DNA from: an uncultured euryarchaeote
Lineage (GTDB): Archaea; Thermoplasmatota; Poseidoniia; Poseidoniales; Poseidoniaceae
Reading direction: 5' to 3'
Length of the DNA: 64,000 nt
Assembly: GCA_937892945.1 (NCBI GenBank)
Contig: CALBIL010000038.1
Span: 66,102-130,101, forward strand
The notes beneath the pieces were generated by a model. It had not been told where the DNA came from, made no database searches, and saw nothing but the letters and a program-made list of their open reading frames with translations. A program made the position numbers and the translations under genes. Below, in pieces: positions 33,615-63,541 of the stretch (position 1 is the stretch's first letter; every line of letters starts with the position of its first letter).

Positions 33615-33860
33615 ATGCTCATGGGCGGCTCAGCGGTATGTGATTTCCTCGGATGTGGCGAAGAAGGAACTATTGTTTCTCGACTTTCACCAGAAGGTTT
33701 TCTTGTCGCTACTGGCAAAAAGGCATATTCATTCAGAGAAGCATACCGACGATTTCACTACTGTGGCAATCACCATGATGAATTGATGGGTGGAGTTTGG
33801 TCACGGGTTCGCAAACCAGAAGATAAAAAAGAAGGCCACGTTGCACCTACCGCAATTTAA
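33615..33860 (+). CDS. Small Cys/His-rich protein (possible zinc-binding), hypothetical
   Basis: 81 aa, with CDFLGC ... YCGNHH. Its stop overlaps the start of the 1397-aa gene by 1 nt. Confidence 0.3.
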   Translation: MLMGGSAVCDFLGCGEEGTIVSRLSPEGFLVATGKKAYSFREAYRRFHYCGNHHDELMGGVWSRVRKPEDKKEGHVAPTAI

Positions 33861-44338: not shown

Positions 44339-47300
44339 TCAACGTGCAGGAATCGCTTTGAGTGTTGAGATCTCTTGACCCATTCGTTCCAAAGCAAGTT
44401 GGGCTGCTTCTTGATGTTGCGGACCCATTTCCTCACGACCGTAACGTGCTTGCTCAAACATATTGTCAAGAGCAAGTAACGCTTCATCAGAAATCTGCGG
44501 CATTGCTTGACGAATTGCCATCTCGAATTCACGAACTGTTTCGAAATCACGACGCAAGAATCCGTGTTCTTGGAAAGCAGCACAGAGATTCTGATAACAC
44601 GTGAAGATTGCTTCACGGATTGAGTCGCCCGCAGCCAACAACTCAGCCGTATACGCAAATATCTCAGCAGCTTCTTCCATTAATTCTGAAGACTTACGGC
44701 GGCGGTAGAGGAGGGTACCTGCACCTGCCAGTCCGAAGATGAGAAGGGTGAGAATATACGCCCATGCAGGAATTTTCGTTGCTGCTTCCTGGTATTCATA
44801 TGAAGGGGCAAATGCATCACCGGACAGTAAAGCAAACTCAGATAATGTTTGTTCTGAGAGCCGAGGGTCGTTGATAAGAATCTCCATGTATAATTCGCCC
44901 CAAGCATCTGTGTCACCATATGGAGGGTCAGAATTGAAATCAAACTCTGCAACACCATCGGCATTCGTAAGTGGTTGCTGAACATCGCCAAGTTGAGTTC
45001 CATTCTCCGTGTAGAGATAAATGGCGACTGCAATTCCATCAACACCCTGTCGAGTATCTTGTGCCGTAATGAGAATACTTCCTCCAATGTCCTCTTGTTC
45101 ATCCTCGATGATACCATCCAGAGATACAACAATGTCTGCATTAATTTTGACAAAGATCAAGTGACTCACACTTGCCGAGTTGAGATAATGGATATCTTGA
45201 CGAGAAGTTTCCAGATGCAAGTATTGAGTTCCAGCACCAAGGAAGGCAGGTGCAGTCGTAGTTAGGGAGAAGTTTCCATTCGACCAATCAATAACGAGAT
45301 TTTCTAAGCAACGCGCCCCATCCTTCTGGGCCAAACATTGTGAACCATTACCAAGATACAGTGTGACATTGTCAAACACTTCACCAAGTCCTCCAATTTC
45401 AGAGACTGAACCGGTCAGTATGATCGGTGCAAAGGTTGAATCGGAACGAACCACAATGTTTGCAGAGGTTGCATCGATGGTGATTCTGGCATTTGCCCAC
45501 ACGGTCGCAGCACCAGTTGCTTGAGTCCCAAGATGGGCCTCAGTGCCTTCATAGAAGATTGTGAAGAGGTGGTCGCCACGAGCTAAATCGGAAGTTGCAG
45601 GTACGAGTATTGACCAACTACCATCGGAACCTGTAACGAGGGTTGCAATCTCAACGTCATCTAAGCGAAGACTGAGATCCATCCCACTCAAGCCGTCGTT
45701 ATTGACAGAATCAATGTCAAACAAACGACCTGACAGAGCCCAGAAATTACCGCGAGTTACATCTTTACCCTCATCGAAGATGAAAGTAACATCTGAGCGA
45801 TGGGCCAAGAAGAAGGAAGTATTGCCTGTGTCTGAACGATAGTAGCCTTGTGCATCCACATTTGCAAACAAGAGGTGGTCGCCAAATCCAAAGGTATCTG
45901 GAACGGTCCAAGTGAAAGTAAACATCCCTTCTGCATCTGTAACAACGGTCGCAATGATGAGGCCTTCGACTTCAAGAAGCACCGTATGGCCGGAGATTCC
46001 AGAGAGTTGATTATCGACGACAGTACCGGTGATGGTTGTATTCTGACCGACTGCGACTGGGCTTTCCATCGAAACTGTGACCAATATTGGACTGTATACA
46101 GTCCATGTCCCAATTGCATTACTTGGCAGATAGAAGGTTGTGCCTGTGAAACGAATCTCCAGCGAAATTGGACCGAGTTGGGCATCAGCAGGTACTGGGT
46201 AAACTGCGGTAAAGAGACCTGTTTCATCAGTCGTCACATTCGTCATCCATTGACCGTCAAGCCAAACTTCAACTGTGAGGTTGTCCAAAGGTACGTCAAC
46301 CAAATCCAGCAAACGCCCTTCAAGAGTCATTGTTGCTTCGCGGTCAACTGTCCCGGTAGGCGTCAAAAGAATAATTTTAGTAGGTACACTGACATTGAAG
46401 TTGACTTGTGCACTGCTAGGGAGGTAGAAATCAGGGTTTGCAGGGTCACCGACGCCAACGGGGTCGACCCAATCGCGTCCACCAAGGAAACGTACTTCAA
46501 TCAAATGTGCTCCAGCAGAGGTGTCCTCTGGCAATGTCCAACCGATTGAAAAGTTCCCACTCAATGCATTCGTTTCAATACTCGAAACTGGGATTCCATC
46601 GACAAGAAGATGAACAATTGCAAGTGATGAGATCCCGTTGATTGTGAGTGTTTGATTTAGGCTATCGAACAATGTCCCTTCGACTGTGAACGAGTCTCCT
46701 GCTACAAGTGTTGAAGGGGATGAGGAAATCATAAGATTCGTCTGAGCAAGAACAACGAATTGTGTTGAGGTATTTGAGCCGATCAAACCAGTTGTCCCCG
46801 GAGTCCCAGCAAAAGTCACGTGCAGGTCATTGAAACCAATGGATTGGTTATTTGGAACGGTAAGTACACCTACGCCTGTCCCATTTTCAAAGGTCGTGAG
46901 GATGATGCTTACATCTGTACCAATAAGCGTAACAACGACCTGTTGTGCTGCAACTGCAGACTGAGTATTGTCACGTAAGAGCACCTGAATTTGTACATCA
47001 TCACCACGTTCAGTACGGTCATTCAAAGATGGTAAACCAATACCATCAAGTGAAGGTTGAACGAAGATAAGGGAGGTAAACCCTCGACTATCGAAAGAGG
47101 TGTTCATCGTCGAACCAATGTAGTAATTGACGTTTGGAATAAATGAGGCATCGAGAGAATTGTTTCCTGCTTCGAAGCCTTCACCAAGAAGGATGGTCGC
47201 GGACCATATTCCACCTGTGGTGACTGAACCACCCGTCACCGAAAAGCCAGTGGTTTGGCCGTTGAGACTGAACAAAATATTCGAAGGCAAGACACTGCCA

Positions 47301-50300
47301 TCGCGTTGTTCAAGCCCACTTCCATTGTCACTGGTTACCGTACCGGTGACATTGAATGAAGTACCAGCAACAGGGTTCGCTGCAATTGGATCAACCACCA
47401 TAATGGTCGTCGAGCGAATGGTAATGGTTGAAAGGTTCACTTGTGTATTCAATAAGTCTGAAGAACCGTTGAACACCAATGAGACAATAATTAATCCAAG
47501 TGGATGTGACATTGGTATTTGGTGACTGAAGTTCGCATAGCCTTCACCATCTGTTTGAGTACCTACTAACCATGTTTCATGAAATTGAATATCGACATCG
47601 AATCCGGATAATGGTGCAAAGAGATTCGATGATTCCATTAAACGTCCAGTGATGTTAATTGAATCTCCACGATTTACGGTGACTGGAATTAACGGTTGGA
47701 GATTATTAAATTGACTTACACCCATCACTAACATTCCATTTTGTGAAGTGGAAGTGAGGTAGAAAGGTGAAGAGTCTTCATTCACACTCAAAACGAGAAT
47801 CTTGTTACCACGTTCAGTACCATTGCCGGAAGTATCGGTTGGAATACTCATATTGAAAGTTCCATTTGAAGTTGTCAGATAGGTACCTACCAACAGTTCA
47901 TCAGGATTATTCAACCAGAATGCAGACATTTCAACTGGAGTTGTAAGAGGACGTGCAGTATTATCTCCGTCGAGAACTTGACCGATGACATTGAAATTTA
48001 ATCCAGCTGTTGTCACAGTAGGAATCGAATCGATTCGGATTTCACTCGGAACTTGAACGGTGAGGTTGATGATGGAGGAGTTGCCCGTGCGACGTGAATT
48101 ACCTTGCCCAAGAGCGTCGGTTAAATCATCATAAACAATCACCAACACATCATAATAGCCAGGTGAAACGCCTGTTGCCGTCCATTGGAGAGTCGAATTA
48201 CCTTCAGCATCTGAAGTATCAAGACCCAATGAAACATTGGTGTTCCCCCAATCAAAGATGTATTCGACTGAAGCACCAGATATGTTTGATTTGTCGGCGA
48301 CATCACGAATTGTCGTATTGAAATCAATTGCTTGGTTGACTTCAACGATTAAGGAACTGCGTTCAGGTTCAACTACAAACTCTGACTCAATGCCAACAAG
48401 TGTTGATGGGAAAGTAGGCGCAGCAGGTGGAACAGAAGTATCGACAAGTCGGAAATATGCGCCACCGGCCGGAGCCATCGAGTCAAAGTCCATATTCAGA
48501 AGGAATTCATATGAATCTGAAGGATTTGTCGTTGGAACCGTGAAGTTGAGAAGGAAACTTCCTGTCGTATTGTTTAACAATCCTTGTGAAAGGTCGATCG
48601 GCATACCATCCGGTGTCATCATGATCACAGAAAGCATGGTAATATTGTCGCCAAGTACACTCAGGTTTGTGTATTGAGCGTCAAAGATATCTCCAATCAA
48701 ATAACTCGAATTACCCAAGTGGGTCCAATCTTGCCCGAGGGTCAAATTCCATCCGACTTCAGCAGCAACGCGCACCATGCCCATGCCGCTCGAGGGTTGA
48801 TACAAATCTGAACCGTTGAATACGATGTCAAACGAGTAATCACCAGCAAACAAAGTCGAATCAATTAACCAATTAATGGTCAATGTTTCAGATTGTGGGT
48901 CGACGGTGGTATTAATCCAGTTTCCGTTAAAAGAGAAATCAAAATTTCCAGAGAGAAGGAGGTCTGAATTAACACCACGATGGTCGACTGCGGTGACTAA
49001 GACTGTTGCTTCAGACCCTCTTAACTGGGCGGAGGCTTGAACTTCGAAATCAAGTGTCCCTCGCAGGAGATAAGGGCCACCTGCAGTGATGTTTGCATCA
49101 TCTGTTGCTTCAATTGCATCCGGGAAGAAACGGAGTTGAATTTCGAGTACTCCTGCCATGACTTGGGTATCTGCTGCCAAGAGTAAATGTTGGATACTAA
49201 ATGACCCATTGACACTTTGGTTAAACACTTGAACCCAGTCTTGTGAAGATCCGTTTTCTCGAATTGAGAATGAAAGATTACCTGGCATTGCGACAGGAGA
49301 TGCTCCAGTCGTCAGGGTAGAACCGTTCACCCAGAGATCATCTCCGATAAGGATGACACTCTTATTAGCAAGAGGTCCTTCAAGAGTGGCAGTTAAATTC
49401 GGTGCATCGCGCACATCAATTACAATCGAAGCGGTCGAAGGACGTAAATGGAATTGAGTCGGAGTTATGCCGGTAGCTTGCGTATCTTGCCATCCAGAGA
49501 AGCCAAGAGTTGCAGAAAGATTCGTTTTCGTCTCGAGTGGGTCGAGGTCTAAATCAAAACTCCAAGTACCATCGATATTCATAAAACTGCTCAAATTTGT
49601 GAAACCTGTCACCGATGAAGTGTACGTTAACCAAACCGATGGTGGTGTCAAATCATTGACGCCAAGATTTGCAATATTGTTTTGTGGAGCATTCTCCAAA
49701 GAGAGTCGCCCTTCAATTACTGTCATGGCACCAGCACCAGCAATTGGAGCATTGATTGCATTGGGAGCAGTGTGATTAAGAATTGAATCATCGGTGACGT
49801 TGATGTATCCATCAAAAATCACGCCTGCTTCGGCTACATACCCGGATTGAACGAGTTTGACAACGACGCGATACATTCCTGGGCCGTCTAATTCAGGAGG
49901 AATTCCAATGAAACTAAAGGTTCCATTCGAAAGCGTAGTGGTTGAACCAATCTCGAAGTTTGGAATAGCAGCTTGTCCGGGGACATCATTTTGCAATCCC
50001 ATTGGAACAAGGTAGCCTAAAAGTATGTGATCCGCAATAGAAGATGTGTTTTCAGTGAAGCGGAGTTGTCCAGTGACATTGAGCAAGGTCGTCCCATCAC
50101 GGTCGAGGGTTAAGGAAGAAAGAGTTTGATTCACAATTTCAACTTCTTCAGCCGCAGGACAGGCGTCGAATGCAATCCATCCAAGTTCAGTATCTCCATT
50201 CGCTGAATTTTGTTGCAATCGGACTTCACCCCAAGTGGACAAATGGGTTGGGTACAGTGAATAGCCATCACCGTTCCAAATACCGCCAGAGAAACCGGTC

Positions 50301-53300
50301 ACCATACGAGCAGGTAATCCAGCAAGGCGAGCCATCGTAACGAATGCTGTATTAAATTCTGAACAAGTTCCTTCAAATGCAGCTTGGACTAAAGTTACGC
50401 TCAAATCTTCGGAAGAAGGGATTCCAGAGCCGTTGTAATTACGCTTGAAATCAGTGGTTGCATTTCCTTCAGTCAGGAAAGTCTGCAAGGCTGTTGCACT
50501 GTCATAAGCATTGGTTGCACCTGCCTCAGTAATGACTGCAGTTGTAACATTGAGGAGGTACGAATTCGGGTGCGAGGGGTCGTTAAAGGTAGGCGGTAAA
50601 ATCAATTCATAACTTGAGTTCGTGCCCGGTACTGTCGTTGATGCAAGTGTTGCCCAATCGAAGTAATACTCTGGTTGTTGGACATAAATTTCTTGAATTG
50701 GCCCATTAAGAACTCGGATGTTATGAGTATCATTCGATCGTAGTAACTCTCCAGCAATGTCCACGTAAAACGATACATTAGAGAGTGAATAGGGGACGGG
50801 GAGATTACCCGATATTGATGGATTTTGATAAGTAATCATCCAATCAAGAGTTTCGTTCGAAAAGGTAAGGTCACCAAGATGAGTTAGATTCGAGTAAGGG
50901 AGAATCATGGGTTCAAATGGATGAATCGCTTCAAGATGCGCATAGGTTGTACCTGTGTAGAAATCATTGGTCGTTTGGCGCCATCGATGAATTGAATCGA
51001 TATCGACGACACCTGAGGTATTGTTTGCCCAAAAGACAACTTCTGAAGAAATCAAATCGTCGGTTGGGTCAAAAGGATCGAAAGGTGAACCTTGACATCC
51101 GACAATCCAAAACTCTTGAGGGCATTCGAGGCCATCAATCATCCCACCGCCGTCGGTATCCGGGTTGGTCCAATCAGTTCCTGTTTGATTCTCAACAGCA
51201 TCAGGAATACCGTCACCATCAAAATCAGCAGGCAATAAGTCATCAGTCGGATCGTTTTCAGGGTTCGTACCATCAAAATATTCATCGCGATCCCCAACAC
51301 CACCAGCATCTGTATCGCTCGTCACATCGCTTGTAACCCATACATCTGTCGAACCGTTGAGGATTCCAATCCACGAAAGATCGCAGCCTGTTGTCGCTTC
51401 AAAATAATTGTTCAATCCATCAAGATCATCATCGAGTAAATTCGTGCAGGGTTGGTTGGGGTCCGTGTTGTCAAAGACTTCATCAAAATCATTCACACCA
51501 TCTGCGTCAGTATCCGCGAGCGTAGGATTCGAAAACCAACCAAACGTTCCGAGTAATTCTTGCCAATCTGCAAGGCCATCTCCATCTGAATCTGAATAAT
51601 CATCATCACAATATTGCTGAGTTGTGCCAATTGTCCCACTGGCTGTTGCCGATGTGTGGCAGAAAGACCCGTTGCGATTTGAGACTTGCGTGACACCTGA
51701 ATTTGGAGCGGTTGATACGCCTTGTATGGCATTATTCACCGTACCTGCATAAGCAAAAGCAATCCAGGTGCCAGAAGTGTTGTACCACCCCACACCACCG
51801 CTTGGATTGAATCCTGTCCCATCGAGAACTTGGAGTTGGCTGGTACCTGCAGCCCAAGATACAATGGTCGTTTCAAAGTTGATTATCGAGTCGCAAGGGT
51901 CCGTTCCATGCGAAACATTGCGTTCATCACCATCATTGATTCCACCGAAATCGGTATCGGCAATATCCCAAGTGGTGCATGAAAGGTTTTCTTCCCAATT
52001 CTGAATCCCATCATTGTCTTCATCACCGGAATCTTCCATTCTCGTAGGGTCGGTTTCACCTGCATCCAAAACACCATTAAAATTGGTATCTTCTTCACCA
52101 TCGTCAAAGGCGTCCCCGTCGGTGTTATTGTTACGCGGATCGCTTGGTTGAGGAGGTATTCCATAAGCACCGTTAACTTCAACGCCGTCATCAATACCAT
52201 CGCGGTCGGTATCTGCAGAAGTTGGGTCTGTCAAGAGCGTCAATGCTTCATAGGAATCGTTTAATCCGTCACCATCAGTATCTGCGCGCTGTGGATTTGT
52301 ACTCGTAATGCCATCGACTTCGGCAGTCAAAGCAGCACAACCACCTGGCCCAATTCCGGACACAGGGTCACAAGGCGAAGTGGTTTCTGTAACAACTCCA
52401 TCAGGACCGTTCCGGAAACAAGGTGAAGTACCACACATTGTGGTCCATGATGGATTGACATATTCCATGAGATTGGTGAGCCCGTCTCCATCTGGGTCGC
52501 CATTTGGCCCATCAGCATTGGAAGCGGAAGTTGCATTGAGGCCATTCGCGGCCTCCCAACCGTCATTCATTCCATCGCCGTCGGTATCCCAACCGGCCAC
52601 GTCTTCATCAGCAATGCCATCACCGTCATCATCGTTGGATGAGCAATCTGCATCCCCGTCATTATCGGGATCGGCAGAATCAACCAAGCCGTCTTTATCG
52701 TCATCGAAACCATTCGTACAAATATTGCCTACTGGGTCTTCGTCGCAAAGAATCACACTGCCGGTGCCGTCTGAGCCACTATCACCGCAACCAGGTCTGT
52801 TGTACTGCAGGGCTCCTTCTTCATTCCAATCATTGACTGGAACTGTACCGTTCCACCAAACACCCTGATCAAGAACACCTGGTGTTGAAGAGCTGTCCCA
52901 ATTTTGAGGTTGCAAGTAAGAATATTCTTGTAAATTTGACATCCCATCGCCATCAGGGTCGCCAACTGCTCCATCTCCGCCGTTACTCGAAAGAGGGTCA
53001 AGGCCATATTGCCACTCCCATCCATCGGGCAAACCATCGTTATCAGAATCGGGGTCATTTGGAGCTGTATTCATGAGGTATTCCAAACCATACGTCAAAC
53101 CATCTCCATCTTGGTCAGAAGCGGCCAGAACATCCATCGAAATATACGGAATTGCAGCAAAAGTTGAGAGCACCATCAAGGCCGCTAGGGAGAACGATTT
53201 GAAGGCGTTACGATGCTGAAGAATCTGCCATTGGAAGCGCGGCTCGGAGGGAGAAACAGTCGTGCGCATTGGATTCACTGTTGACGGGCTGGTTTGATGC

Positions 53301-53407
53301 CTCATAAGGGAAATGGTACGATGTTCATACAATGCTTCACTTTGAGGGGTGGTCGTGAAGAGTAAATACGAAACAAACAGCCACGCAGTAAAGCGTATAC
53401 ACTTCAA
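44339..53407 (-). CDS. Giant surface protein (3022 aa): N-terminal TSP3-like repeats, extracellular transglutaminase-like Cys/His/Asp core, ~2000 aa of repeated beta-sandwich-like domains, single TM, DUF4129-like cytoplasmic tail
   Basis: Transglutaminase core: EGTCSEFNTAFVTMARLAGLPARMVTGF, HLSTWGEV, GWIAFDA, located around 50100-50420. TM: AWAYILTLLIFGLAGAGTLLY RRRK. Tail: TVREFEMAIRQAMPQISDEALLALDNMFEQARYGREEM. Confidence 0.85.
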   Translation of the reverse strand: MKCIRFTAWLFVSYLLFTTTPQSEALYEHRTISLMRHQTSPSTVNPMRTTVSPSEPRFQWQILQHRNAFKSFSLAALMVLSTFAAIPYISMDVLAASDQDGDGLTYGLEYLMNTAPNDPDSDNDGLPDGWEWQYGLDPLSSNGGDGAVGDPDGDGMSNLQEYSYLQPQNWDSSSTPGVLDQGVWWNGTVPVNDWNEEGALQYNRPGCGDSGSDGTGSVILCDEDPVGNICTNGFDDDKDGLVDSADPDNDGDADCSSNDDDGDGIADEDVAGWDTDGDGMNDGWEAANGLNATSASNADGPNGDPDGDGLTNLMEYVNPSWTTMCGTSPCFRNGPDGVVTETTSPCDPVSGIGPGGCAALTAEVDGITSTNPQRADTDGDGLNDSYEALTLLTDPTSADTDRDGIDDGVEVNGAYGIPPQPSDPRNNNTDGDAFDDGEEDTNFNGVLDAGETDPTRMEDSGDEDNDGIQNWEENLSCTTWDIADTDFGGINDGDERNVSHGTDPCDSIINFETTIVSWAAGTSQLQVLDGTGFNPSGGVGWYNTSGTWIAFAYAGTVNNAIQGVSTAPNSGVTQVSNRNGSFCHTSATASGTIGTTQQYCDDDYSDSDGDGLADWQELLGTFGWFSNPTLADTDADGVNDFDEVFDNTDPNQPCTNLLDDDLDGLNNYFEATTGCDLSWIGILNGSTDVWVTSDVTSDTDAGGVGDRDEYFDGTNPENDPTDDLLPADFDGDGIPDAVENQTGTDWTNPDTDGGGMIDGLECPQEFWIVGCQGSPFDPFDPTDDLISSEVVFWANNTSGVVDIDSIHRWRQTTNDFYTGTTYAHLEAIHPFEPMILPYSNLTHLGDLTFSNETLDWMITYQNPSISGNLPVPYSLSNVSFYVDIAGELLRSNDTHNIRVLNGPIQEIYVQQPEYYFDWATLASTTVPGTNSSYELILPPTFNDPSHPNSYLLNVTTAVITEAGATNAYDSATALQTFLTEGNATTDFKRNYNGSGIPSSEDLSVTLVQAAFEGTCSEFNTAFVTMARLAGLPARMVTGFSGGIWNGDGYSLYPTHLSTWGEVRLQQNSANGDTELGWIAFDACPAAEEVEIVNQTLSSLTLDRDGTTLLNVTGQLRFTENTSSIADHILLGYLVPMGLQNDVPGQAAIPNFEIGSTTTLSNGTFSFIGIPPELDGPGMYRVVVKLVQSGYVAEAGVIFDGYINVTDDSILNHTAPNAINAPIAGAGAMTVIEGRLSLENAPQNNIANLGVNDLTPPSVWLTYTSSVTGFTNLSSFMNIDGTWSFDLDLDPLETKTNLSATLGFSGWQDTQATGITPTQFHLRPSTASIVIDVRDAPNLTATLEGPLANKSVILIGDDLWVNGSTLTTGASPVAMPGNLSFSIRENGSSQDWVQVFNQSVNGSFSIQHLLLAADTQVMAGVLEIQLRFFPDAIEATDDANITAGGPYLLRGTLDFEVQASAQLRGSEATVLVTAVDHRGVNSDLLLSGNFDFSFNGNWINTTVDPQSETLTINWLIDSTLFAGDYSFDIVFNGSDLYQPSSGMGMVRVAAEVGWNLTLGQDWTHLGNSSYLIGDIFDAQYTNLSVLGDNITMLSVIMMTPDGMPIDLSQGLLNNTTGSFLLNFTVPTTNPSDSYEFLLNMDFDSMAPAGGAYFRLVDTSVPPAAPTFPSTLVGIESEFVVEPERSSLIVEVNQAIDFNTTIRDVADKSNISGASVEYIFDWGNTNVSLGLDTSDAEGNSTLQWTATGVSPGYYDVLVIVYDDLTDALGQGNSRRTGNSSIINLTVQVPSEIRIDSIPTVTTAGLNFNVIGQVLDGDNTARPLTTPVEMSAFWLNNPDELLVGTYLTTSNGTFNMSIPTDTSGNGTERGNKILVLSVNEDSSPFYLTSTSQNGMLVMGVSQFNNLQPLIPVTVNRGDSINITGRLMESSNLFAPLSGFDVDIQFHETWLVGTQTDGEGYANFSHQIPMSHPLGLIIVSLVFNGSSDLLNTQVNLSTITIRSTTIMVVDPIAANPVAGTSFNVTGTVTSDNGSGLEQRDGSVLPSNILFSLNGQTTGFSVTGGSVTTGGIWSATILLGEGFEAGNNSLDASFIPNVNYYIGSTMNTSFDSRGFTSLIFVQPSLDGIGLPSLNDRTERGDDVQIQVLLRDNTQSAVAAQQVVVTLIGTDVSIILTTFENGTGVGVLTVPNNQSIGFNDLHVTFAGTPGTTGLIGSNTSTQFVVLAQTNLMISSSPSTLVAGDSFTVEGTLFDSLNQTLTINGISSLAIVHLLVDGIPVSSIETNALSGNFSIGWTLPEDTSAGAHLIEVRFLGGRDWVDPVGVGDPANPDFYLPSSAQVNFNVSVPTKIILLTPTGTVDREATMTLEGRLLDLVDVPLDNLTVEVWLDGQWMTNVTTDETGLFTAVYPVPADAQLGPISLEIRFTGTTFYLPSNAIGTWTVYSPILVTVSMESPVAVGQNTTITGTVVDNQLSGISGHTVLLEVEGLIIATVVTDAEGMFTFTWTVPDTFGFGDHLLFANVDAQGYYRSDTGNTSFFLAHRSDVTFIFDEGKDVTRGNFWALSGRLFDIDSVNNDGLSGMDLSLRLDDVEIATLVTGSDGSWSILVPATSDLARGDHLFTIFYEGTEAHLGTQATGAATVWANARITIDATSANIVVRSDSTFAPIILTGSVSEIGGLGEVFDNVTLYLGNGSQCLAQKDGARCLENLVIDWSNGNFSLTTTAPAFLGAGTQYLHLETSRQDIHYLNSASVSHLIFVKINADIVVSLDGIIEDEQEDIGGSILITAQDTRQGVDGIAVAIYLYTENGTQLGDVQQPLTNADGVAEFDFNSDPPYGDTDAWGELYMEILINDPRLSEQTLSEFALLSGDAFAPSYEYQEAATKIPAWAYILTLLIFGLAGAGTLLYRRRKSSELMEEAAEIFAYTAELLAAGDSIREAIFTCYQNLCAAFQEHGFLRRDFETVREFEMAIRQAMPQISDEALLALDNMFEQARYGREEMGPQHQEAAQLALERMGQEISTLKAIPAR

Positions 53408-53423
53408 AGAAACAGGAAATTAC

Positions 53424-56381
53424 TCAAAGATCTTCAAGTTGATCTAAAAGTTCCAAATCATCATCTTCTTCGACCACTGGTTCGACGATAGATTCTACAG
53501 TTTCGAGTCCAAAATCAAACTCTTCATCGACCCACTTTTGATGAGGTTCATTCATCCCACCAGCATTTTGCCCACGCCGATACACAGCAAAGACTAGAAC
53601 AAATGCGAGACCAATTCCAAGCGCTAATGTTTGAGGTTCTGGATTCATAATTTCATTGAAAAGACATGCAATCCCATTGCATTCAGTTTGATATGAAAAC
53701 GACATAATTTGAGTGAATTCACTGTCATAGGGCACTTCCTCATCCATCGGAGTAACTGTCAGAGTAAATTTCACGTCATCACCGTCTTTCAAATTTGACG
53801 GTGGGGTAACTGCAACTGAGAAGTCTTTACTCGTGTATGCAGGAAGTGTGAGCAAGAGGAAACTTCCTCCATTTTGGCCAGAAGATGCTCGAATCAAGCC
53901 ATCCCATCCATTCGGCTCCTCCAAGGTAATCACCACATCGAGAGGTATGTTGTTTTGGTTATCAATCTTGAAGTTAATACTCCTTTCTTCATCTGACTCA
54001 AACCGGATAATTTCAGTGCTTGTGTCGGTGATTTCAAGTTGTCCTGGTTGGACGTCATCTCGGACTTCAACTGTAATTGGTAAATCGAAGTATCGCGCTT
54101 CTTCAGAATCTACGCCTTCCTCGATGACTCGAACATAGACAGTATGGAACCCAGCCTCAACCTTAGAGCGCAATGTCAAGTCGAGCTTGATGTCTACGTG
54201 CTCATCGGCTTCAAGATAGACGACCACAATATTGGATTCCGTTCCATTCGAGATATCATAATCCCATGTACCATAATCGGGGTTACCGTCTGGAGTTTCG
54301 AGATTACGGTCTAATTCTGAAGGATTTTTAATTCTCCATGTCGTTTGACCCAGTGTTTCACTTGAATCTGTGATTCGCATATTGTAATACATGCTTGAAC
54401 CTGGTGAAACAGGCCCGACTGTACCGAGCGTGCCTCCATCAGAGTCAGCAATGACTTCCACCAGGATGCCAAAAGTCCGGTGAACTGTGAACGCAATTTC
54501 TGTGCTGAGTTCGGTGTCACTGGTACTGGAAACTGAAAACTCGACCAAACCAATGTCTTGTGCATCTCGCTCATTCGGTGGGAAAATTTCCATGCGTAGA
54601 GTGATAATTTGATTTGAACCTATATCGGGAGTGATTGAATAAATTCCTTCTTCAGTCAACTCCATTCCCGTATCGTTATCGAAGAACTTGAATTGCCAGG
54701 CGTCAGGAAAATCTGTAACTCGTAATCGGAATGAATCTGTAATAAATCCTGCATTGAAGACATCGACGAAGAATTCACCTTTGGTATCGCCGGCGTCGAC
54801 ATAATGCGAAAGTGTCTCATCATAGGCTTCAACACGCGTTGAATCAGCAATTTGTATTTGATGTTCAAAATCTTCAAAGATGGCAATCCGAGGTGGCGCC
54901 AATACATCAGATTCTTCAATCGAAAGGACAATCGTTTTTATTGCTACTTGATCGTTTTGGGCATTTTCAGTATCTGCATAGGCTCGTGCTTCAATTTCGA
55001 TGCTGCTTGGAGCATTGGTGAGGTCTCCATCGACCACATCAAACCTGAGAATTGGACGAGCAAAGGTGCCTCCACCGTTGAGCGTGTATCCACCGGCTTG
55101 ATCCCATATAGGGTCTGACCATGATGAAGGGAAAGGTGAACCAACTAAATCAAAGACGATATTCATCGATGAAGAAGTAGAGCCGGTATGTTCGATCAAG
55201 AATTCAATACTGGATGTTTGGCCTGGAGCAATTAGAACAGTATCTGGCTGAGAAGAAGGGAGTGAGAGATAGATGTCATGCTCCACGAAAGTAATCCCGG
55301 GGTGTTCAAAGACAAGTGTATGACCTTGAACGTCATTGATTTCCAATTGCAAGGGGTAATCGCCAGCACTGATACCAGAATCATACGTCCACGTATAATT
55401 CCCAATCAATCCTTGATTATCCAACTTCAGCTCATCATCGTCGAATGTTTTATCGAACTCTGAGTTTGCACCATTTGGCGTACTCATGACCAAATCCACG
55501 TTTTGAATGTCATCACGCCCAAAAGCATCACGAACATCAACAGTGAATTGCATTGTTCGGAAATCAGGCCGATGGTTTGGAGACCATTCAAGAACTTCTG
55601 CATCAGTAAAACTTGCACCAGGTCGGTGAACACGAACAGATGAGTCAGCTAATGCATTTGCTTTCAATTCGAGTTTCGAGTATCCATTGGTTTGTTCGAC
55701 ATCACCAAAGGCAACATCGACTTCACAATTGTTGCCACCAATACCGCCACCACCACTGCTTTCACAAGTGGCCTGAGCATCGATATTCAATTCCAGTTGT
55801 TCTCCATTTTCGACAGTAAAGCCGTTTGATGAGATTTCAAAATCGATAATGCTTGGCGTCCAAGAACAACTACCAGTTCCAAGAGCCCCACCGGTACATG
55901 GTTCCTCAAGAGTTTCTGAAAACGAATCAATTTCGGTCCCACCGGATTCGAGTGAATAGGTGATGTCTGCGGTAGAGCCCGTTGACCCACGGAATTGTAA
56001 AAACAGCGTCAACGTTACTTTGTCGGTATTGTCACGGCCGTAGACTAAGAGGTCGGAAATCATTTCATTACTACGGAATTGAATCCCACCCAGTGCACTC
56101 AGTTCCTGGTGAGAACCTGAAGGTTCCTCTGTGGTGATTGAACCATCTCCGCCAGCCTCTGAGGTCATTTCATCGAGGTACAGATCGTACGATTGGCACG
56201 TATTGCAATCGTTTCCTGCGGGCAAAACACTCGGTTCATCTTCAAGAACAGAATCGAATGACGTCGGGTATGAAGAAGGGGCAGTCATAGGAAGAATTGA
56301 GCCGATGAGCAAGATGACCAAAAGGACGGGTAAAAGGCGGTTGACGGAAGTTGCATGCGTTGAGGACACTCTGTTCACCAT
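53424..56381 (-). CDS. Large surface protein (985 aa): signal peptide, beta-rich domains, C-terminal TM and acidic tail. Upstream partner of the 3022-aa gene.
   Basis: Leader LLPVLLVILLIGSILPMTAPSS. C-terminal LALGIGLAFVLVFAVY RRGQ and a D/E-rich tail. 16 nt from the downstream gene start. Confidence 0.8.
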   Translation of the reverse strand: MVNRVSSTHATSVNRLLPVLLVILLIGSILPMTAPSSYPTSFDSVLEDEPSVLPAGNDCNTCQSYDLYLDEMTSEAGGDGSITTEEPSGSHQELSALGGIQFRSNEMISDLLVYGRDNTDKVTLTLFLQFRGSTGSTADITYSLESGGTEIDSFSETLEEPCTGGALGTGSCSWTPSIIDFEISSNGFTVENGEQLELNIDAQATCESSGGGGIGGNNCEVDVAFGDVEQTNGYSKLELKANALADSSVRVHRPGASFTDAEVLEWSPNHRPDFRTMQFTVDVRDAFGRDDIQNVDLVMSTPNGANSEFDKTFDDDELKLDNQGLIGNYTWTYDSGISAGDYPLQLEINDVQGHTLVFEHPGITFVEHDIYLSLPSSQPDTVLIAPGQTSSIEFLIEHTGSTSSSMNIVFDLVGSPFPSSWSDPIWDQAGGYTLNGGGTFARPILRFDVVDGDLTNAPSSIEIEARAYADTENAQNDQVAIKTIVLSIEESDVLAPPRIAIFEDFEHQIQIADSTRVEAYDETLSHYVDAGDTKGEFFVDVFNAGFITDSFRLRVTDFPDAWQFKFFDNDTGMELTEEGIYSITPDIGSNQIITLRMEIFPPNERDAQDIGLVEFSVSSTSDTELSTEIAFTVHRTFGILVEVIADSDGGTLGTVGPVSPGSSMYYNMRITDSSETLGQTTWRIKNPSELDRNLETPDGNPDYGTWDYDISNGTESNIVVVYLEADEHVDIKLDLTLRSKVEAGFHTVYVRVIEEGVDSEEARYFDLPITVEVRDDVQPGQLEITDTSTEIIRFESDEERSINFKIDNQNNIPLDVVITLEEPNGWDGLIRASSGQNGGSFLLLTLPAYTSKDFSVAVTPPSNLKDGDDVKFTLTVTPMDEEVPYDSEFTQIMSFSYQTECNGIACLFNEIMNPEPQTLALGIGLAFVLVFAVYRRGQNAGGMNEPHQKWVDEEFDFGLETVESIVEPVVEEDDDLELLDQLEDL

Positions 56382-57383: not shown

Positions 57384-57510
57384 CAATGCTCTCAAAAATA
57401 ATTCATGCGAAAATAACGCAGATTCTAGGTTTGTACGGCGCATGACCAAAAAAGACCACAGCACATCTTTTTGAAAGGCAAAGCATAGGATGAAGCAAGG
57501 GGGAACATGT

Positions 57511-58539
57511 ATGTCGGGCAAACAACTACCGATGGCGAGTAAAACTCCTCCTGCTTTACGTCCAAAACCAAAACGTGAACGGCTCCCCGACTGGTTTCGT
57601 ACAACTCTACCTTCCGGAGAGCAGCAAGCTCTTTTCAACAAAACAAAAGCGGCTGTTCAAGACAATGCCCTACACACTGTTTGTCAAGAAGCCCGATGCC
57701 CAAATATCCATGATTGCTGGGCCAGTGGTGATGCTACATTCATGATTGCTGGCCAAGAATGCACCCGTGGATGCCGCTTTTGTGCTGTTGGCACCATCAA
57801 AACACCTCCGCCCCTTGACCTTGAGGAACCCTCACATCTTGCAACTGCTGTTGAATCGATGAATCTTCGACACGTCGTCATTACAGTCGTCAACAGAGAT
57901 GACCTACCCGACAGTGGAGCCGACCATTACAAACAATGCATCGCTGCCGTCCACAAGCGTCAACCAAATGTCACACTTGAATTGCTTTGCTCAGATTTAG
58001 CTGGCGACCATGAAGCCCTTGCTCATCTTCTCGATGGAAGCCCACTCTCGGTCTTCGCTCACAATGTTGAATGCGTACCTCGTCTTGACAAAACCGTTCG
58101 TGACCACAGAGCATCTTTTTCTCAATCGCTCGAGATTCTTCGTCAAGCCAAAATCCTACGCCCAGATCTCATTACGAAATCTTCGTTGATGGTTGGAGTT
58201 GGTGAGCGTGATGAAGAAATCACTGAATCCTTACACCTCCTACGCAACGCTGGCGTAGACCTCATCACAATTGGACAATACCTTGCCCCTTCATCAAGTC
58301 ATTTGACGGTCGACCGGTTCCCGGAGCCGGAGATGTATGACACGTGGGCAAAGGAAGCAATTGCAATGGGTTTTGCTGGAATTGCCAGTGGACCTCTCGT
58401 ACGCTCATCCTTCAAGGCCGGACTTTTACTGCGAAAAACACTGGATTCCGAGAACTCGGAAAGAATGCCTGGTGCATATGTGTATGTCGCTCAAGATGAA
58501 AACGATACACCCGCACCTCTTAAGGGCGGGATGAACTGA
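57511..58539 (+). CDS. lipA: Lipoyl synthase
   Basis: CPNIHDC, WASGDATFMIAG, radical-SAM CTRGCRFCAV. GGGGG lies 7 nt upstream of the ATG at 57511; the track starts at 57490. Confidence 0.85.
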   Translation: MSGKQLPMASKTPPALRPKPKRERLPDWFRTTLPSGEQQALFNKTKAAVQDNALHTVCQEARCPNIHDCWASGDATFMIAGQECTRGCRFCAVGTIKTPPPLDLEEPSHLATAVESMNLRHVVITVVNRDDLPDSGADHYKQCIAAVHKRQPNVTLELLCSDLAGDHEALAHLLDGSPLSVFAHNVECVPRLDKTVRDHRASFSQSLEILRQAKILRPDLITKSSLMVGVGERDEEITESLHLLRNAGVDLITIGQYLAPSSSHLTVDRFPEPEMYDTWAKEAIAMGFAGIASGPLVRSSFKAGLLLRKTLDSENSERMPGAYVYVAQDENDTPAPLKGGMN

Positions 58540-58548
58540 GGTGGAACA

Positions 58549-59790
58549 ATGACCGAGAGAGTGACTGCCACGACTAAGCCGTACACCATCGGCCGGCCTC
58601 CATTTCGTCCTGGTGAAGATGCTGATTTTGGCGGGAAGTTTACTGAACAACCTGGTGATTTGAATCGGCCAGACCCCGCAAACTGTTCAGCACAGGATAC
58701 AGTAGCCCATGCATCGGGTTTGATTCGTGTCCTCACTGATAATGGAATCGCAGAAGGTGAATGGAACCCTCTCTTAGATGCCGAGACCTTGATTCAAGGA
58801 CTTGAATATATGATGCGTCTTCGAATATTTGACGACCGGATGATCAAAATGCAACGAACCGGAAAACTCTCGTTCTACATGCGGTCTTTTGGCGAAGAAG
58901 CAATTGCAATCGCCCAAACCATGGCGCTTGAAACACAGGATTGGATTTTCCCATCCTACCGACAACCTGGCGCTCAATTTGTTCGTGGGCGTGACATGGT
59001 CAGTATGATTTGTCATTGCATTGGCAACACTGAAGATAACGTCAAAGGACGTCAGATGCCAGTTCATTATACTTGGAAACAAGGCCGATTCATTTCCATT
59101 TCTTCTCCTGTAGGAACTCAATTCTCCCAAGCAGTCGGTGTAGCGATGGCCAGTGCGTACAAAGGCGATGATGAAGTTTGTATCTCCTGGCTCGGTGACG
59201 GAACATCTGCACAAGGAGACTATCACTACGCATTAAATTTCGCTTCGACGTTTAAGCCCCCAGTTATTCTCAATGTGGTAAACAACCAATGGGCCATTTC
59301 AACCCACGCTAACCTCGCAACAGGTGGACGTACTTTTGCAGAACGTGGATTAGCCTATGACATTCCTTCTTTCCGAGTGGATGGGAATGACTTCCTCGCA
59401 CTCTACAGCGTGACAAAATGGGCACGTTTGCGAGCAGCTGCCGGTAAAGGGGCAACTCACATCGAAGTCTACACCTATCGAGCAGGTGGACATTCTTCAT
59501 CTGATGACCCCTCTGTATACCGCCCAAGTGATGAATTCAAATATTGGCCTGGTGGAGATCCAATCGAACGACTCAAAGAACACCTCATGAAAGCTGAATT
59601 GTGGAATGAGACCCGTCATACAGCTTTGGCTAAGAAAATTGATGATGAAGTCATGGCTGCATACAAAGCCGCATGTGAGTTTGGCGATTTGGCAAGTGGG
59701 CCATATCCGCCTGCTTCAACTATATTTACCGAAGTCTACGAAACTGTACCTTGGCATGTCCAAGAACAGAGAGAGGAACTTGGAAAGTGA
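58549..59790 (+). CDS. 2-oxoacid (branched-chain/pyruvate-type) dehydrogenase E1 component alpha subunit, TPP-dependent
   Basis: WLGDGTSAQGDYHYALNFA TPP-binding motif. 413 aa. Confidence 0.9.
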   Translation: MTERVTATTKPYTIGRPPFRPGEDADFGGKFTEQPGDLNRPDPANCSAQDTVAHASGLIRVLTDNGIAEGEWNPLLDAETLIQGLEYMMRLRIFDDRMIKMQRTGKLSFYMRSFGEEAIAIAQTMALETQDWIFPSYRQPGAQFVRGRDMVSMICHCIGNTEDNVKGRQMPVHYTWKQGRFISISSPVGTQFSQAVGVAMASAYKGDDEVCISWLGDGTSAQGDYHYALNFASTFKPPVILNVVNNQWAISTHANLATGGRTFAERGLAYDIPSFRVDGNDFLALYSVTKWARLRAAAGKGATHIEVYTYRAGGHSSSDDPSVYRPSDEFKYWPGGDPIERLKEHLMKAELWNETRHTALAKKIDDEVMAAYKAACEFGDLASGPYPPASTIFTEVYETVPWHVQEQREELGK

Positions 59791-59796
59791 GGTGAG

Positions 59797-60810
59797 ATGA
59801 TGACTGATATGAACATGATTAAAGCACTCAATTCCGCTTTGGAAGTACAACTTGAGAAAGATAAGAACGTCGTCATCTTTGGAGAAGATGTTGGATTCTT
59901 TGGTGGAGTATTCCGAGTTACTGACGGATTGCAAAAGAAATTCGGTGAACACAGAGTCTTCGACTCTCCACTTGCCGAAGGTGGAATTGCTGCCATAGCA
60001 ATGGGCATGGGTTTGAATGGACTTCGACCGGTTGCAGAGATTCAATTCGCTGACTATATCTTCCCTGCTTATGACCAAATTGTCAATGAAATTGCCAAAG
60101 TACGTCACCGCTCAGGGGGAGAATTTACCGCACCGCTCACCTTTAGAACACCTGCTGGAGGAGGAATCAAAGGTGGCCATCATCATTCGCAATCACCCGA
60201 AGCTCAATTCACCCATACGCCAGGTTTGAAAGTTGTTTATTGCTCAACACCATACAATGCCAAAGGATTGTTGACCGCTTCTATTGAATGCAACGACCCC
60301 GTTATTTTCTTTGAACCCAAGCGTTGCTACCGAGGGCCATTTTATGGCGACCCACACAATGTTCCAACTTGGAGTGGACACCCAGATGCTGAAGTCCCCG
60401 AAGGCCATTACATCGTCCCATTGGAAGAGGCCCGTATTGTTCGAGAAGGCAGTGCTTGCACTGTTATTGCATGGGGCACCATGGTTCACATGTGTGAACA
60501 AGCCATCAAAGATTCCGGAATTGATTGTGAACTCATCGATTTGCAAACATTGGTTCCTTGGGACCGGGACACCGTCGTCAATTCAATCAAGAAGACTGGG
60601 CGCTGTGTCATTGTACACGAAGCACCGAAGACAAGTGGTTTTGGTGCAGAGATGAGTGCATCAATTCAAGAACGTTGTTTCTACCACTTGGAAGCACCAA
60701 TAACTCGAGTGACGGGATGGGACACGCCTTTCCCCCACACTACGGAATGGGATTATATCCCGAGTCCAGCACGAATTGCAGAAGCAATAAAGAATACACA
60801 GGAGGAATAA
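59797..60810 (+). CDS. 2-oxoacid dehydrogenase E1 component beta subunit
   Basis: Transketolase-like beta-subunit motifs (VVIFGEDVG..GGVFRVT, RVFDSPLAEGGIAA). Confidence 0.9.
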   Translation: MMTDMNMIKALNSALEVQLEKDKNVVIFGEDVGFFGGVFRVTDGLQKKFGEHRVFDSPLAEGGIAAIAMGMGLNGLRPVAEIQFADYIFPAYDQIVNEIAKVRHRSGGEFTAPLTFRTPAGGGIKGGHHHSQSPEAQFTHTPGLKVVYCSTPYNAKGLLTASIECNDPVIFFEPKRCYRGPFYGDPHNVPTWSGHPDAEVPEGHYIVPLEEARIVREGSACTVIAWGTMVHMCEQAIKDSGIDCELIDLQTLVPWDRDTVVNSIKKTGRCVIVHEAPKTSGFGAEMSASIQERCFYHLEAPITRVTGWDTPFPHTTEWDYIPSPARIAEAIKNTQEE

Positions 60811-60812
60811 AT

Positions 60813-62099
60813 ATGGGAACGTTTGCATTTAAGATGCCAGATATTGGAGAAGGAGTCGTCGAAGGAGAAGTTGTTGAATGGATGGTCGCTGTTGGCGACG
60901 TCGTCAAAGAAGACGATCCGATTCTTTCTGTGATGACCGATAAAGCAACTGTCGAAATCCCTTCACCTGTTGACGGTAAAGTAATTTCAGTCATTGGCGA
61001 AGCCGGTGACACATTGCCAGTCGGTGTTGTTTGTATCGAATTCGAAGTTGACGGTGATGGAAACGCAGCATCATCAGTTGATGTACCAACACCTGCCCCT
61101 GAACCAAAAGCAGAACCGGCTTCAACCCCAGAGCCAGAAGCAGCGCCTGAGGTAAAAACATCACCAGTTGCAGCAGCGCCAGTTGCAGCAGCACCCGCCG
61201 TTCAACGTGCAGCAGGAACCAAGGCATTGTCCAGTCCTGCAGTTCGTCAACGTGCCCGTCAAGCCAACATCGACCTCAACATGGTCGCAGGCTCCGGCCC
61301 TGCAGGTAGAATTAGCCATGCAGACCTCGATGCCCACATCGCTGGCGGAGTAAGTGGCGCAAGCCGTGCCCGACCAATGGGTGCTTCAGCCCGAACTGAG
61401 CGGAATGGAACAGAAGAAATCAAAGTTATTGGTCTGCGAAGAAAAATTGCAGAAGGTATGGTTTCATCCTACACCACTATTCCTCATTTCTCGTACTTTG
61501 AAGAAGTCGATGTCACGGCTCTGGAAGAATTACGCCAACATCTCAATGCGACTCGCCCTGAAGGTGCTCCGAAATTGACCTATTTGCCCTTCATCATGCA
61601 AGCATTGGTCAAGGCATTGGGAGAACGCCCAGAATGTAACGCAGTCTATGATGACGATTCAAACATCGTCACTCGACATGAAGCGATCAATCTTGGAATT
61701 GCAACTCAAACTGACCGTGGACTGTTCGTCCCTGTTGTCCAACACGTGGAAGCCATGGACATTTGGCAATCTGCTGAAGAAATGGTACGTGTCACAAGTG
61801 CAACTCGAGATGGTAAAGCAACTGCAGATGACCTTTCAGGCTCGACCTTTACCATCACCAGTCTTGGACGACTTGGAGGATTAGGTGCAACCCCAATCAT
61901 CAACAAACCGGAAGTTGGAATTCTTGGAATTCATAATGCAAAAGAACGTGCAGTTGTGAGAGATGGTAACATTGTGATTCGTCGAATGATGAACCTTTCA
62001 TCTTCTTGGGACCATCGAGTTGTCGATGGTCATGACGGTGCAAGTCTTGTACAACTCGTGAAGTCATACCTCGAACATCCGGCTACAATTTTCATGTGA
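60813..62099 (+). CDS. Dihydrolipoamide acyltransferase E2 (lipoyl domain + Ala/Pro linker + catalytic domain)
   Basis: Lipoyl-lysine motif VMTDKATVEIPSP. Catalytic DHRVVDG. GGAGG 8 nt upstream of the ATG at 60813; the track ORF at 60558 overlaps E1beta. Confidence 0.85.
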   Translation: MGTFAFKMPDIGEGVVEGEVVEWMVAVGDVVKEDDPILSVMTDKATVEIPSPVDGKVISVIGEAGDTLPVGVVCIEFEVDGDGNAASSVDVPTPAPEPKAEPASTPEPEAAPEVKTSPVAAAPVAAAPAVQRAAGTKALSSPAVRQRARQANIDLNMVAGSGPAGRISHADLDAHIAGGVSGASRARPMGASARTERNGTEEIKVIGLRRKIAEGMVSSYTTIPHFSYFEEVDVTALEELRQHLNATRPEGAPKLTYLPFIMQALVKALGERPECNAVYDDDSNIVTRHEAINLGIATQTDRGLFVPVVQHVEAMDIWQSAEEMVRVTSATRDGKATADDLSGSTFTITSLGRLGGLGATPIINKPEVGILGIHNAKERAVVRDGNIVIRRMMNLSSSWDHRVVDGHDGASLVQLVKSYLEHPATIFM

Positions 62100-62110
62100 G
62101 GTGCTAAAAT

Positions 62111-63541
62111 ATGCAGACTAAAAAATGTCAAGTTCTCGTAATCGGAGCAGGCCCTGGTGGATACGTCGCTGCAATTCGCGCAGGACAACTCGGTTTGTCA
62201 ACCATCATTGTCGAAGGTGAAAAAGCAGGTGGGACCTGTCTCATTCGAGGCTGCATCCCATCGAAGGCTTTGATTCACGCCGCTCACCAATTCCATAAGT
62301 TAGCAAAGCATTCATCAAACGATGGCCACATGGGTATCTCGATTCCTGGACCGGCAGAACTGAACATGGGTAACTTGGTCTCTTGGAAAGAAGGCATTGT
62401 CACTCGACTCAACAAAGGTGTCGAACATTTGCTCAAGAATGCAGGTGCTGAACTCATCATCGGATGGGCTGAATTTCAAGACGCTAAAACCGTCAAAGTT
62501 GGTGAAGGAAAGGATGCAACCATCATCCAAGCAGAGCATGTTATTCTTGCCAATGGGTCAGTCCCGATTGAACTTCCATTCATGCCATATGATGAAAACG
62601 TTATTTCGTCTCGTGAGGCCTTATCCCTTGAAGAATTACCAAAGCACGTTGCCATTGTTGGTGGTGGATACATCGGACTTGAACTTGGAATTACATTCCG
62701 TATGCTCGGTTCCGAAGTGACTGTTGTTGAAGCAATGGACAGCGTCCTACCGATCTTTGACAAGGAACTACGACGACCACTTGAGATCTCAATTAAGAAG
62801 CAGAAAATCAAGACACATCTCGGTGTATTCGCAAAAGGTGTTGAAAAAGCAAAAGATGGTCGTACACAACTCAACTTTATTGATAAAAATGAGAAAGACG
62901 AATCGAAAATGCAGAATGTCATTGTCGACAAAGTGTTGGTCACAGTTGGCCGCAAACCCAACTCAGCATCTTTGGCCCCAACTGGCGTGGCATTAGATGA
63001 ACGTGGATTCGTCAAAGTCAACGACCGTTGTGAAACCAACATGCGTGGTGTTTATGCAATCGGTGATGTCTGTGATTCTGGAGAAATGTTGGCGCATGTT
63101 GCCTCTTTCCAAGGAGAAATGGTGGCCGAAATTATTGCTGGTCACAAGCGAGCATACGACCCAGTCGCTGTCCCTGCAATCGTGTTCACTGAACCTGAGA
63201 TCGTATCCGTTGGACTTTCACCTGAAGAGGCAAAAGCCGCTGGACACCCTGTAATTGTCGGGAAGTTCCCCTTGGGAGCAAACGGACGTGCATTAACGCA
63301 AGAAGCGGAAAAGACTGCAGGATTTATTCGAGTATGTGCACGAGAAGATGATCATCGTATTCTTGGAATCCAAGGTGTGGGAACTCACATCAGTGAACTG
63401 GTTGGTGAGTGGACACTTGCTCTTGAAATGGGTGCCTTACTCGAAGATATTGCTGGAACAATCCATGCACATCCAACCATGACTGAAATGACCCATGAAG
63501 CTGTTCTTGCAACTCTTGGTCATGCGATTCATTCTGCTTGA
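62111..63541 (+). CDS. lpdA: Dihydrolipoamide dehydrogenase E3
   Basis: GAGPGGYVAAIRAAQLG FAD motif, redox disulfide GGTCLIRGCIPSK, C-terminal HAHPTMTE. Confidence 0.9.
   Translation: MQTKKCQVLVIGAGPGGYVAAIRAGQLGLSTIIVEGEKAGGTCLIRGCIPSKALIHAAHQFHKLAKHSSNDGHMGISIPGPAELNMGNLVSWKEGIVTRLNKGVEHLLKNAGAELIIGWAEFQDAKTVKVGEGKDATIIQAEHVILANGSVPIELPFMPYDENVISSREALSLEELPKHVAIVGGGYIGLELGITFRMLGSEVTVVEAMDSVLPIFDKELRRPLEISIKKQKIKTHLGVFAKGVEKAKDGRTQLNFIDKNEKDESKMQNVIVDKVLVTVGRKPNSASLAPTGVALDERGFVKVNDRCETNMRGVYAIGDVCDSGEMLAHVASFQGEMVAEIIAGHKRAYDPVAVPAIVFTEPEIVSVGLSPEEAKAAGHPVIVGKFPLGANGRALTQEAEKTAGFIRVCAREDDHRILGIQGVGTHISELVGEWTLALEMGALLEDIAGTIHAHPTMTEMTHEAVLATLGHAIHSA

Follow-up and report, generated by a model that had tools for sequence, protein, structure and literature searches.

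We analyzed a stretch of 64,000 nucleotides, referred to as the window, from an uncultured euryarchaeote of the Poseidoniaceae (Poseidoniales, Marine Group II (MGII); GenBank assembly GCA_937892945.1, contig CALBIL010000038.1, positions 66,102 to 130,101 of the forward strand). It contains a giant gene on the reverse strand (44339..53407, -), whose product is predicted to display at the cell surface a module of transglutaminase fold that is probably non-catalytic or non-canonical. The open reading frame (ORF) is listed with 3022 codons and encloses the region 50100-50420, in which a preliminary description of this DNA had placed a transglutaminase-like catalytic core within a surface protein of 3022 amino acids (aa). 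The ORF list and the translation agree with that length, and the three motifs quoted for the core (EGTCSEFNTAFVTMARLAGLPARMVTGF, HLSTWGEV and GWIAFDA) are present, all inside the region. The mechanically assigned start, a TTG at 53407, probably lies too far upstream, as orthologs of 2943-3088 aa start 40-55 aa ahead of a conserved DQDGDG motif, and the true start is probably Met35 (53303-53305) or Met47 (53267-53269). A hydrophobic segment at aa 72-89 (53141..53194, -), which from a reading of the sequence would be a signal peptide or a signal anchor, has a comparable counterpart ahead of DQDGDG in all full-length orthologs. Near the other end lies a single transmembrane helix, aa 2882-2900 (44708..44764, -), followed by RRRK; it is the only segment above threshold in a hydropathy scan of the protein, it has an equivalent in the orthologs, and it supports the view of a C-terminally anchored surface protein. 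The domain layout anticipated in the preliminary description holds as well, as the core is located about 900 aa past the hydrophobic segment and is followed by ~1,770 aa of beta repeats and then by the transmembrane helix. The extracellular part contains 76 N-x-S/T sequons where shuffled sequences give 35±5, and its acidic residues number 377, its basic ones 74. This excess of sequons and this acidic composition fit a glycosylated archaeal surface protein, and the giant protein is probably heavily glycosylated.

Profile comparison and structure prediction together identify the core as a genuine module of the TgpA-type transglutaminase/papain-like fold. Pfam Transglut_core (PF01841) matches aa 962-1082 (50162..50524, -) with E=5.5e-11 and a score of 43.2 bits (cut-off 23), over profile positions 9-108 of 108, and a score so far above the cut-off makes the domain resemblance real rather than a product of chance. 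A family alignment was assembled from aa 770-1136 of the window protein and 19 metagenomic homologs. When the profile built from this alignment was compared with the sequences of the Protein Data Bank (PDB), it found the periplasmic domain of TgpA (6g49; E=2.8e-6) and, more weakly, PNGase, factor XIII and 3isr. For aa 770-1136, AlphaFold2 gave a model with a mean predicted local distance difference test score (pLDDT) of 78.7 and a predicted template modeling score (pTM) of 0.79; in this model a helix begins at C1015, and strands at aa 1056-1066 and 1074-1080 complete the arrangement of the core fold. The best PDB matches returned by Foldseek for the model are again TgpA (6g4h/6g49; E=2e-11, 309 columns, template modeling (TM) score 0.64, target-normalised), next come 3isr, factor XIII, TglA and TG2, and the top matches are all of the transglutaminase fold. 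The whole module of ~340 residues (aa 761-1100; 50108..51127, -) is thus similar to the outward-facing part of TgpA (its residues 180-544), including the beta subdomain that lies N-terminal to the core. The Transglut_core profile search and the structure prediction, both of which had been put forward as checks in the preliminary description, bear out its assignment to the transglutaminase/cysteine-protease core.

The catalytic triad is a different matter. The quoted motifs map to aa 1012-1039 (EGTCSEFNTAFVTMARLAGLPARMVTGF; window 50291-50374, -), aa 1055-1062 (HLSTWGEV; 50222-50245, -) and aa 1076-1082 (GWIAFDA; 50162-50182, -), and the residues proposed as the triad were Cys1015, His1055 and Asp1081. 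Cys1015 (50363..50365, -), in a G-x-C motif where the core helix begins, occupies the position of the canonical nucleophile, and Asp1081 (50165..50167, -), at the end of a G-W-x-x-x-D strand, that of the canonical triad acid; these two assignments stand. His1055 (50243..50245, -) is in the wrong register. Across the superfamily the catalytic His lies two residues ahead of a conserved Trp (H-x-W-x-E), a position denoted here as W-2, and in TG2 its context is H335-C-W-V-E. The profile alignment sets the TgpA stretch FDAHAWVE over the family consensus edlatWgE; on this alignment the canonical His position is taken by Ser1057 (50237..50239, -), and His1055, at W-4, pairs with an Asp of TgpA. A shift in register bringing H1055 to the catalytic position was considered and rejected, as TgpA has both the Asp at W-4 and the His at W-2 and most members of the clade keep the Asp. 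H895, in an R-[ST]-N-D-T-H motif and the one His of the module that is well conserved, was likewise rejected as a universal catalytic substitute, being found in only 14/17 sequences, with R or G in three orthologs, and the clade alignment contains no invariant His in aa 770-1100.

The absence of the catalytic His extends across the clade. A profile search of 1.84 billion representative proteins yielded 15,760 matches at E≤1e-3, 58 of them at E≤1e-30. The 150 top-ranked proteins contributed 245 core domains, which were aligned, together with the 19 homologs of the first search, to a hidden Markov model of the core. In this alignment W-2 is His in 168 of ~220 distant cores and S/T/A/N/D/R/L in every member of the clade to which the window protein belongs; at W-4 most distant cores have Q, and the clade has D/N/H/S. 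A second alignment, confined to 23 clade sequences that include full-length orthologs of 2,701-3,088 aa, gives S6/A6/T5/D2/N/R/L at W-2, D10/N7/H4/S1 at W-4 and D15/E5/N1 in the Asp1081 column, with Cys1015 present in 23/23. One genome per GTDB species was then scanned; a relative was found in 222, and residues were counted in the best 80 of these 222, which are essentially all Poseidoniales and include the original MG-II genome CM001443.1. Cys1015 and Asp1081 are each conserved in 80/80 genomes, whereas the Ser1057 position reads T35/A22/S20/G2/N1 and the His1055 position D48/H18/N14. Among about 100 clade sequences in total, there is not a single His at W-2. The preliminary description had named a lack of conservation of the triad in homologs as grounds for its refutation; with His1055 retained in 18 of 80 genomes and W-2 never His, this refutes it as regards the His, while the Cys and the Asp pass. 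The same counts, T/A/S/G/N at the canonical His position in 80/80 genomes, lend no support to a triad that matches in sequence context and spacing or to a catalytically competent domain. Covalent attachment of the cell to particles by canonical transglutaminase chemistry, which had been suggested on that basis, is unlikely.

The loss of the His is matched by a gain. Cys1083 (50159..50161, -), two residues after the triad acid (Asp+2) in a D-x-C-P motif, is present in 80/80 genomes, as is the adjacent P1084. Among Cys-bearing representative cores, a Cys at Asp+2 occurs in 24/24 of those that lack the His and in 1/87 of those that bear it; in these sequences, loss of the His and gain of the Asp+2 Cys are strictly coupled, and the Asp+2 Cys is specific to the clade. 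The equivalent residue in human TG2 is Thr360 (Asp358+2), which is strictly conserved and forms the active-site tunnel with Trp241 and Trp332 (PMC13073648). By this equivalence, Cys1083 should face the same pocket as Cys1015. In six full-length orthologs the extracellular Cys residues fall into neighboring pairs, 346/357, 477/505, 583/600, 654/675 and 762/771, followed by 1015/1083, and these orthologs have no conserved Cys between aa 1084 and the transmembrane helix. As all the other extracellular Cys occur in neighboring pairs, C1015 and C1083 are left as partners for one another, and a disulfide between them is likely. Right after the core, Asn1093 (50129-50131, -), the Asn of an N-Q-T sequon, is invariant in the clade (20/20), which suggests that a conserved N-glycan is positioned beside the former active site.

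The module is embedded between regions of very different character. Ahead of it, aa 97-760 (51128..53119, -) consist of acidic, Cys-paired repeats of the thrombospondin type 3 (TSP3), calcium-binding-like kind, recognized by Pfam TSP3_bac and by partial NCBIfam CglD/MtsD matches, and the acidic ~660 aa that follow the hydrophobic segment harbor 14 D-x-D-x-D-G-x-x-D motifs. This is the best-conserved extracellular part of the giant protein: identity to five full-length orthologs is 58-67% in the TSP3 region, 47% in the core and ~30-40% in the stalk. The stalk, aa 1101-2870 (44798..50107, -), comprises about 16 divergent beta-sandwich repeats, which were recognized from self-comparison of its ~1,770 aa, with offsets of about 100-110 aa and multiples thereof, and from Pfam matches to CarboxypepD_reg and, weakly, to MG2. 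It has no conserved Cys among the six full-length orthologs, and from the number of repeats its length can be roughly estimated at tens of nanometres. Beyond the transmembrane helix, Pfam detected a cytoplasmic DUF4129 domain at aa 2937-3006 (44390..44599, -; PF13559, E=7.3e-7, with 29.6 bits above the cut-off of 24.8), which the preliminary description had missed. The DUF4129 tail aligns in the orthologs with ~60% identity and ranks among the best-conserved parts of the protein; next to no description of this domain was found in the literature searched. The tail also carries a conserved Cys pair, C2937/C2942, in a C-Y-x-x-L-C motif.

The giant gene has a neighbor that probably encodes a functional partner. 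A gene at 53424..56381 (-), located 16 nucleotides upstream of the listed start of the giant ORF, or about 120-155 nucleotides upstream if the giant gene starts at Met35 or Met47, specifies a membrane-anchored surface protein of 985 aa whose all-beta body is flanked by a signal anchor and a C-terminal transmembrane helix. No Pfam family matched this protein; its 588 homologs, about 950-1,000 aa each, are all unannotated. The AlphaFold2 model of the partner is weak (pLDDT 61, pTM 0.34), and the Foldseek matches to it are generic MG/Ig-like beta-sandwich arrays. The partner, the giant gene, a small ORF and the XPD helicase follow one another in this order in three further, divergent loci with orthologs as well, and in the Thalassarchaeaceae locus (MGIIb) the partner shows 33% identity over 880 aa. 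Close homologs all derive from Candidatus Poseidoniales (Marine Group II), in assemblies of Poseidoniaceae and Thalassarchaeaceae. A contig labeled 'Verrucomicrobiales bacterium' (L051; NZEQ01000074.1) contains the Poseidoniales-type gene at 58% identity and has probably been mis-binned. An operon in the style of TgpA, with MoxR and DUF58 genes, was looked for and rejected, as neither gene was found in the scanned ORFs of the window or within ±10 kb of the orthologous loci L001 and L002.

The archaeal nature of the window shows elsewhere in its genes for split RNA polymerase A'/A'' and B subunits and for the XPD helicase. A second large ORF at 33860-38053 (+), of 1,397 aa and with a weak match to the thrombospondin type 3 repeat, presumably specifies another surface protein. 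At 57490-63541 (+), a lipoyl synthase gene precedes an operon for all components of a 2-oxoacid dehydrogenase (E1 alpha, E1 beta, E2, E3), an arrangement that is syntenic with the Thalassarchaeaceae locus L002.

What might a giant protein with a remodeled active site do at the cell surface? We lean, slightly rather than strongly, towards a model in which it belongs to the envelope or to an adhesion apparatus and bears a disulfide-bonded module of transglutaminase fold that is not a canonical enzyme and acts, with its partner, as a binding or structural head. The mature protein would be a cell-surface glycoprotein of ~2,980 aa, and its plan is an inflated version of that of TgpA. In the whole clade the general-base His has given way to a small residue (Ser1057 in the window protein, T/A/S elsewhere), which would make room for a C1015-C1083 bond formed in the oxidising extracellular milieu. 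The module would be neither a canonical transglutaminase nor a canonical cysteine protease, and the conserved former active-site cleft would serve as a non-catalytic binding or structural head, held together with the calcium-binding-like repeats at the distal end of the stalk. There it would probably act with the presumably co-transcribed 985-aa partner in the cell envelope or adhesion apparatus, while the DUF4129 tail would couple the giant protein to something cytoplasmic.

Several observations weigh against this model. The disulfide is drawn from the Cys-pairing pattern and the analogy with TG2, and the roles of the partner and of DUF4129 are drawn from co-occurrence only. Both the TSP3 region and the DUF4129 tail are better conserved than the core, which may not be the key functional element of the protein. 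The invariant Cys1015 and Asp1081 lie amid strongly constrained residues; such constraint on the pocket is unlike that of a simply decayed pseudo-enzyme, and some chemistry at the site is possible. Finally, TgpA, the closest characterized relative, is active as a transglutaminase in vitro (PMC3507681).

A doubtful, though by no means far-fetched, alternative takes up this constraint and supposes a non-canonical enzyme, in which Cys1015 is a nucleophile activated by other means, such as the acidic or His residue at W-4, D1081 or E1061 in a Cys-Asp dyad, or Cys1083, and performs acyl-transfer, deamidation or peptidase reactions on envelope or particle proteins. E1017, T1058, W1059, E1061, D1081, C1083 and P1084 vary little or not at all in the 80 genomes; C1015, D1081, E1017, W1059 and E1061 are each found in 80/80, and the W-4 column is limited to D/H/N. 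Precedent comes from the microbial transglutaminase of Streptomyces, which has an unrelated fold and uses a Cys-Asp pair with the Asp in the role of the His. However, the Asn found at W-4 in 14/80 genomes cannot be a base, and W-2 tolerates T/A/S/G/N/D/R/L, which indicates that the His has no specific replacement. An unpaired reactive thiol would also be unusual in oxic seawater, the more so as the other extracellular Cys appear paired, and we know of no active member of the PF01841 fold that lacks the His.

It is quite improbable, in our view, that the pocket formed by C1015, C1083, D/H/N1055, D1081 and E1061 is a redox switch, a thiol-disulfide capture device or a metal site at the tip of the stalk. 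The two invariant Cys are predicted to face the same tunnel, the surrounding D, E and D/H/N residues are typical metal or proton-relay ligands, and the strict coupling of His loss with Cys gain would be in keeping with such a site, but a plain structural disulfide accounts for the pattern more simply and the Asn at position 1055 in 14/80 genomes is a poor ligand for a soft metal. A bolder proposal, that the tunnel has been rebuilt as a functional two-Cys site on a long stalk and that the protein pair, conserved throughout the Poseidoniales, represents principal components of the MGII envelope or particle-attachment machinery, is unlikely. As for a working C1015/H1055/D1081 triad that cross-links or cleaves surface proteins, the presence of the three residues in the right order and at roughly the right spacing, the PF01841 score well above its cut-off and the in vitro activity of TgpA, the closest solved relative, speak for it, but we consider it very improbable, as H1055 sits at W-4 rather than W-2, facing the Asp of TgpA, is D or N in 48 and 14 of the 80 genomes, and leaves a canonical column that is never His in the clade, and since most orthologs lack H1055 an order-wide function cannot depend on it.

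Conserved and syntenic in both families, the gene pair is a good candidate for encoding a core surface structure. No other planktonic archaea are as abundant in the surface ocean as the Poseidoniales, and to our knowledge Marine Group II is uncultured and its envelope and particle attachment are experimentally undescribed. The domain assignment itself is already in public annotation, where the proteins are labeled 'transglutaminase domain-containing protein', 'transglutaminase-like putative cysteine protease' or 'DUF4129 domain-containing transglutaminase family protein'. From such labels one would readily conclude that proteins are cross-linked or proteolysed at the surface of MGII cells; the clade-wide loss of the His makes this conclusion unsafe. 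As adhesion candidates, Rinke et al. named only 'thrombospondin genes' (PMC6461757), and in the literature searched we found no paper that brings transglutaminase together with MGII or Poseidoniales. As far as we found, the new elements are the clade-wide loss of the His with gain of the Cys, the TgpA architecture in its inflated form and the synteny with the partner throughout the order. The coupling of His loss to Cys gain offers a clean, testable case of active-site remodeling in the papain/transglutaminase fold. If the model of a disulfide-bonded binding or structural head is correct, it amounts to a useful correction and a modest structural curiosity, not to a new mechanism.

Among known systems, the membrane transglutaminase TgpA of Pseudomonas aeruginosa (PA2873; 6g49, 6g4h) is the best match in both sequence and structure, over the whole module of ~310 residues. 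The two proteins share the order of an outward-facing transglutaminase module, a transmembrane helix and a cytoplasmic DUF4129 domain, and their modules have in common a GG-x-x-x-x-G insert after the Arg strand and, in most clade members, the Asp at W-4. TgpA, with a DUF3488/Transglut_core/DUF4129 architecture, has 688 aa, six transmembrane helices and an intact Cys-His-Asp triad, whereas the giant protein has about 3,000 aa, one N-terminal hydrophobic segment, ~660 aa of TSP3 repeats and a ~1,770-aa stalk, lacks the catalytic His and possesses the extra invariant Cys at Asp+2. The polytopic DUF3488 domain (about 5 transmembrane helices) is not matched by Pfam in the giant protein, and hydropathy is likewise negative.

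The closest His-bearing relatives in the profile search (E about 1e-53) are multi-core giants of the type of a protein that we designate P0036. They resemble the window protein in their size of 2,000-3,000 aa and their beta-sandwich (MG2-like) domains, but they have 2-4 tandem cores and a Q-A-H-Q-W-A-E-V motif in which the His is kept, and they have no Cys at Asp+2; in some core copies the Cys has been swapped for Ser, Ala or Gly. At the P0036 locus (L003, 8001-21315) the giant gene is followed by genes for an 822-aa protein, a MoxR (AAA_3) AAA+ ATPase and a DUF58 protein. No homology was detected between this 822-aa neighbor and the 985-aa partner, and the MoxR/DUF58 clusters of the P0036 type look like a different, likewise uncharacterized system.

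More distant comparisons concern the core. Two bacterial transglutaminase-like 'putative cysteine proteases', the Cytophaga hutchinsonii protein 3isr and Streptococcus TglA (9crn), share the core fold (Foldseek E of 5e-7 and 2e-4), but are small soluble proteins that align over the core only, with TM scores of 0.25-0.30. The animal transglutaminases factor XIII A, TG2 and TG3 share the papain-like core, with a Cys at the N-terminus of a helix, a W-x-E strand and an Asp strand (Foldseek E of 1e-4 to 1e-3); peculiar to the animal enzymes are a beta-sandwich and two beta-barrels, the tunnel residues Trp241/Trp332/Thr360 and activation by calcium. A precedent for a non-catalytic use of the fold, by functional analogy, is their inactive paralogue Band 4.2, which is without the triad and has kept the transglutaminase fold as a non-catalytic scaffold (PMC13073648). 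The paths of the two differ: Band 4.2 has lost the Cys, whereas in the Poseidoniales clade both the Cys and the Asp persist, the His alone is gone, and a Cys stands at the position equivalent to Thr360.

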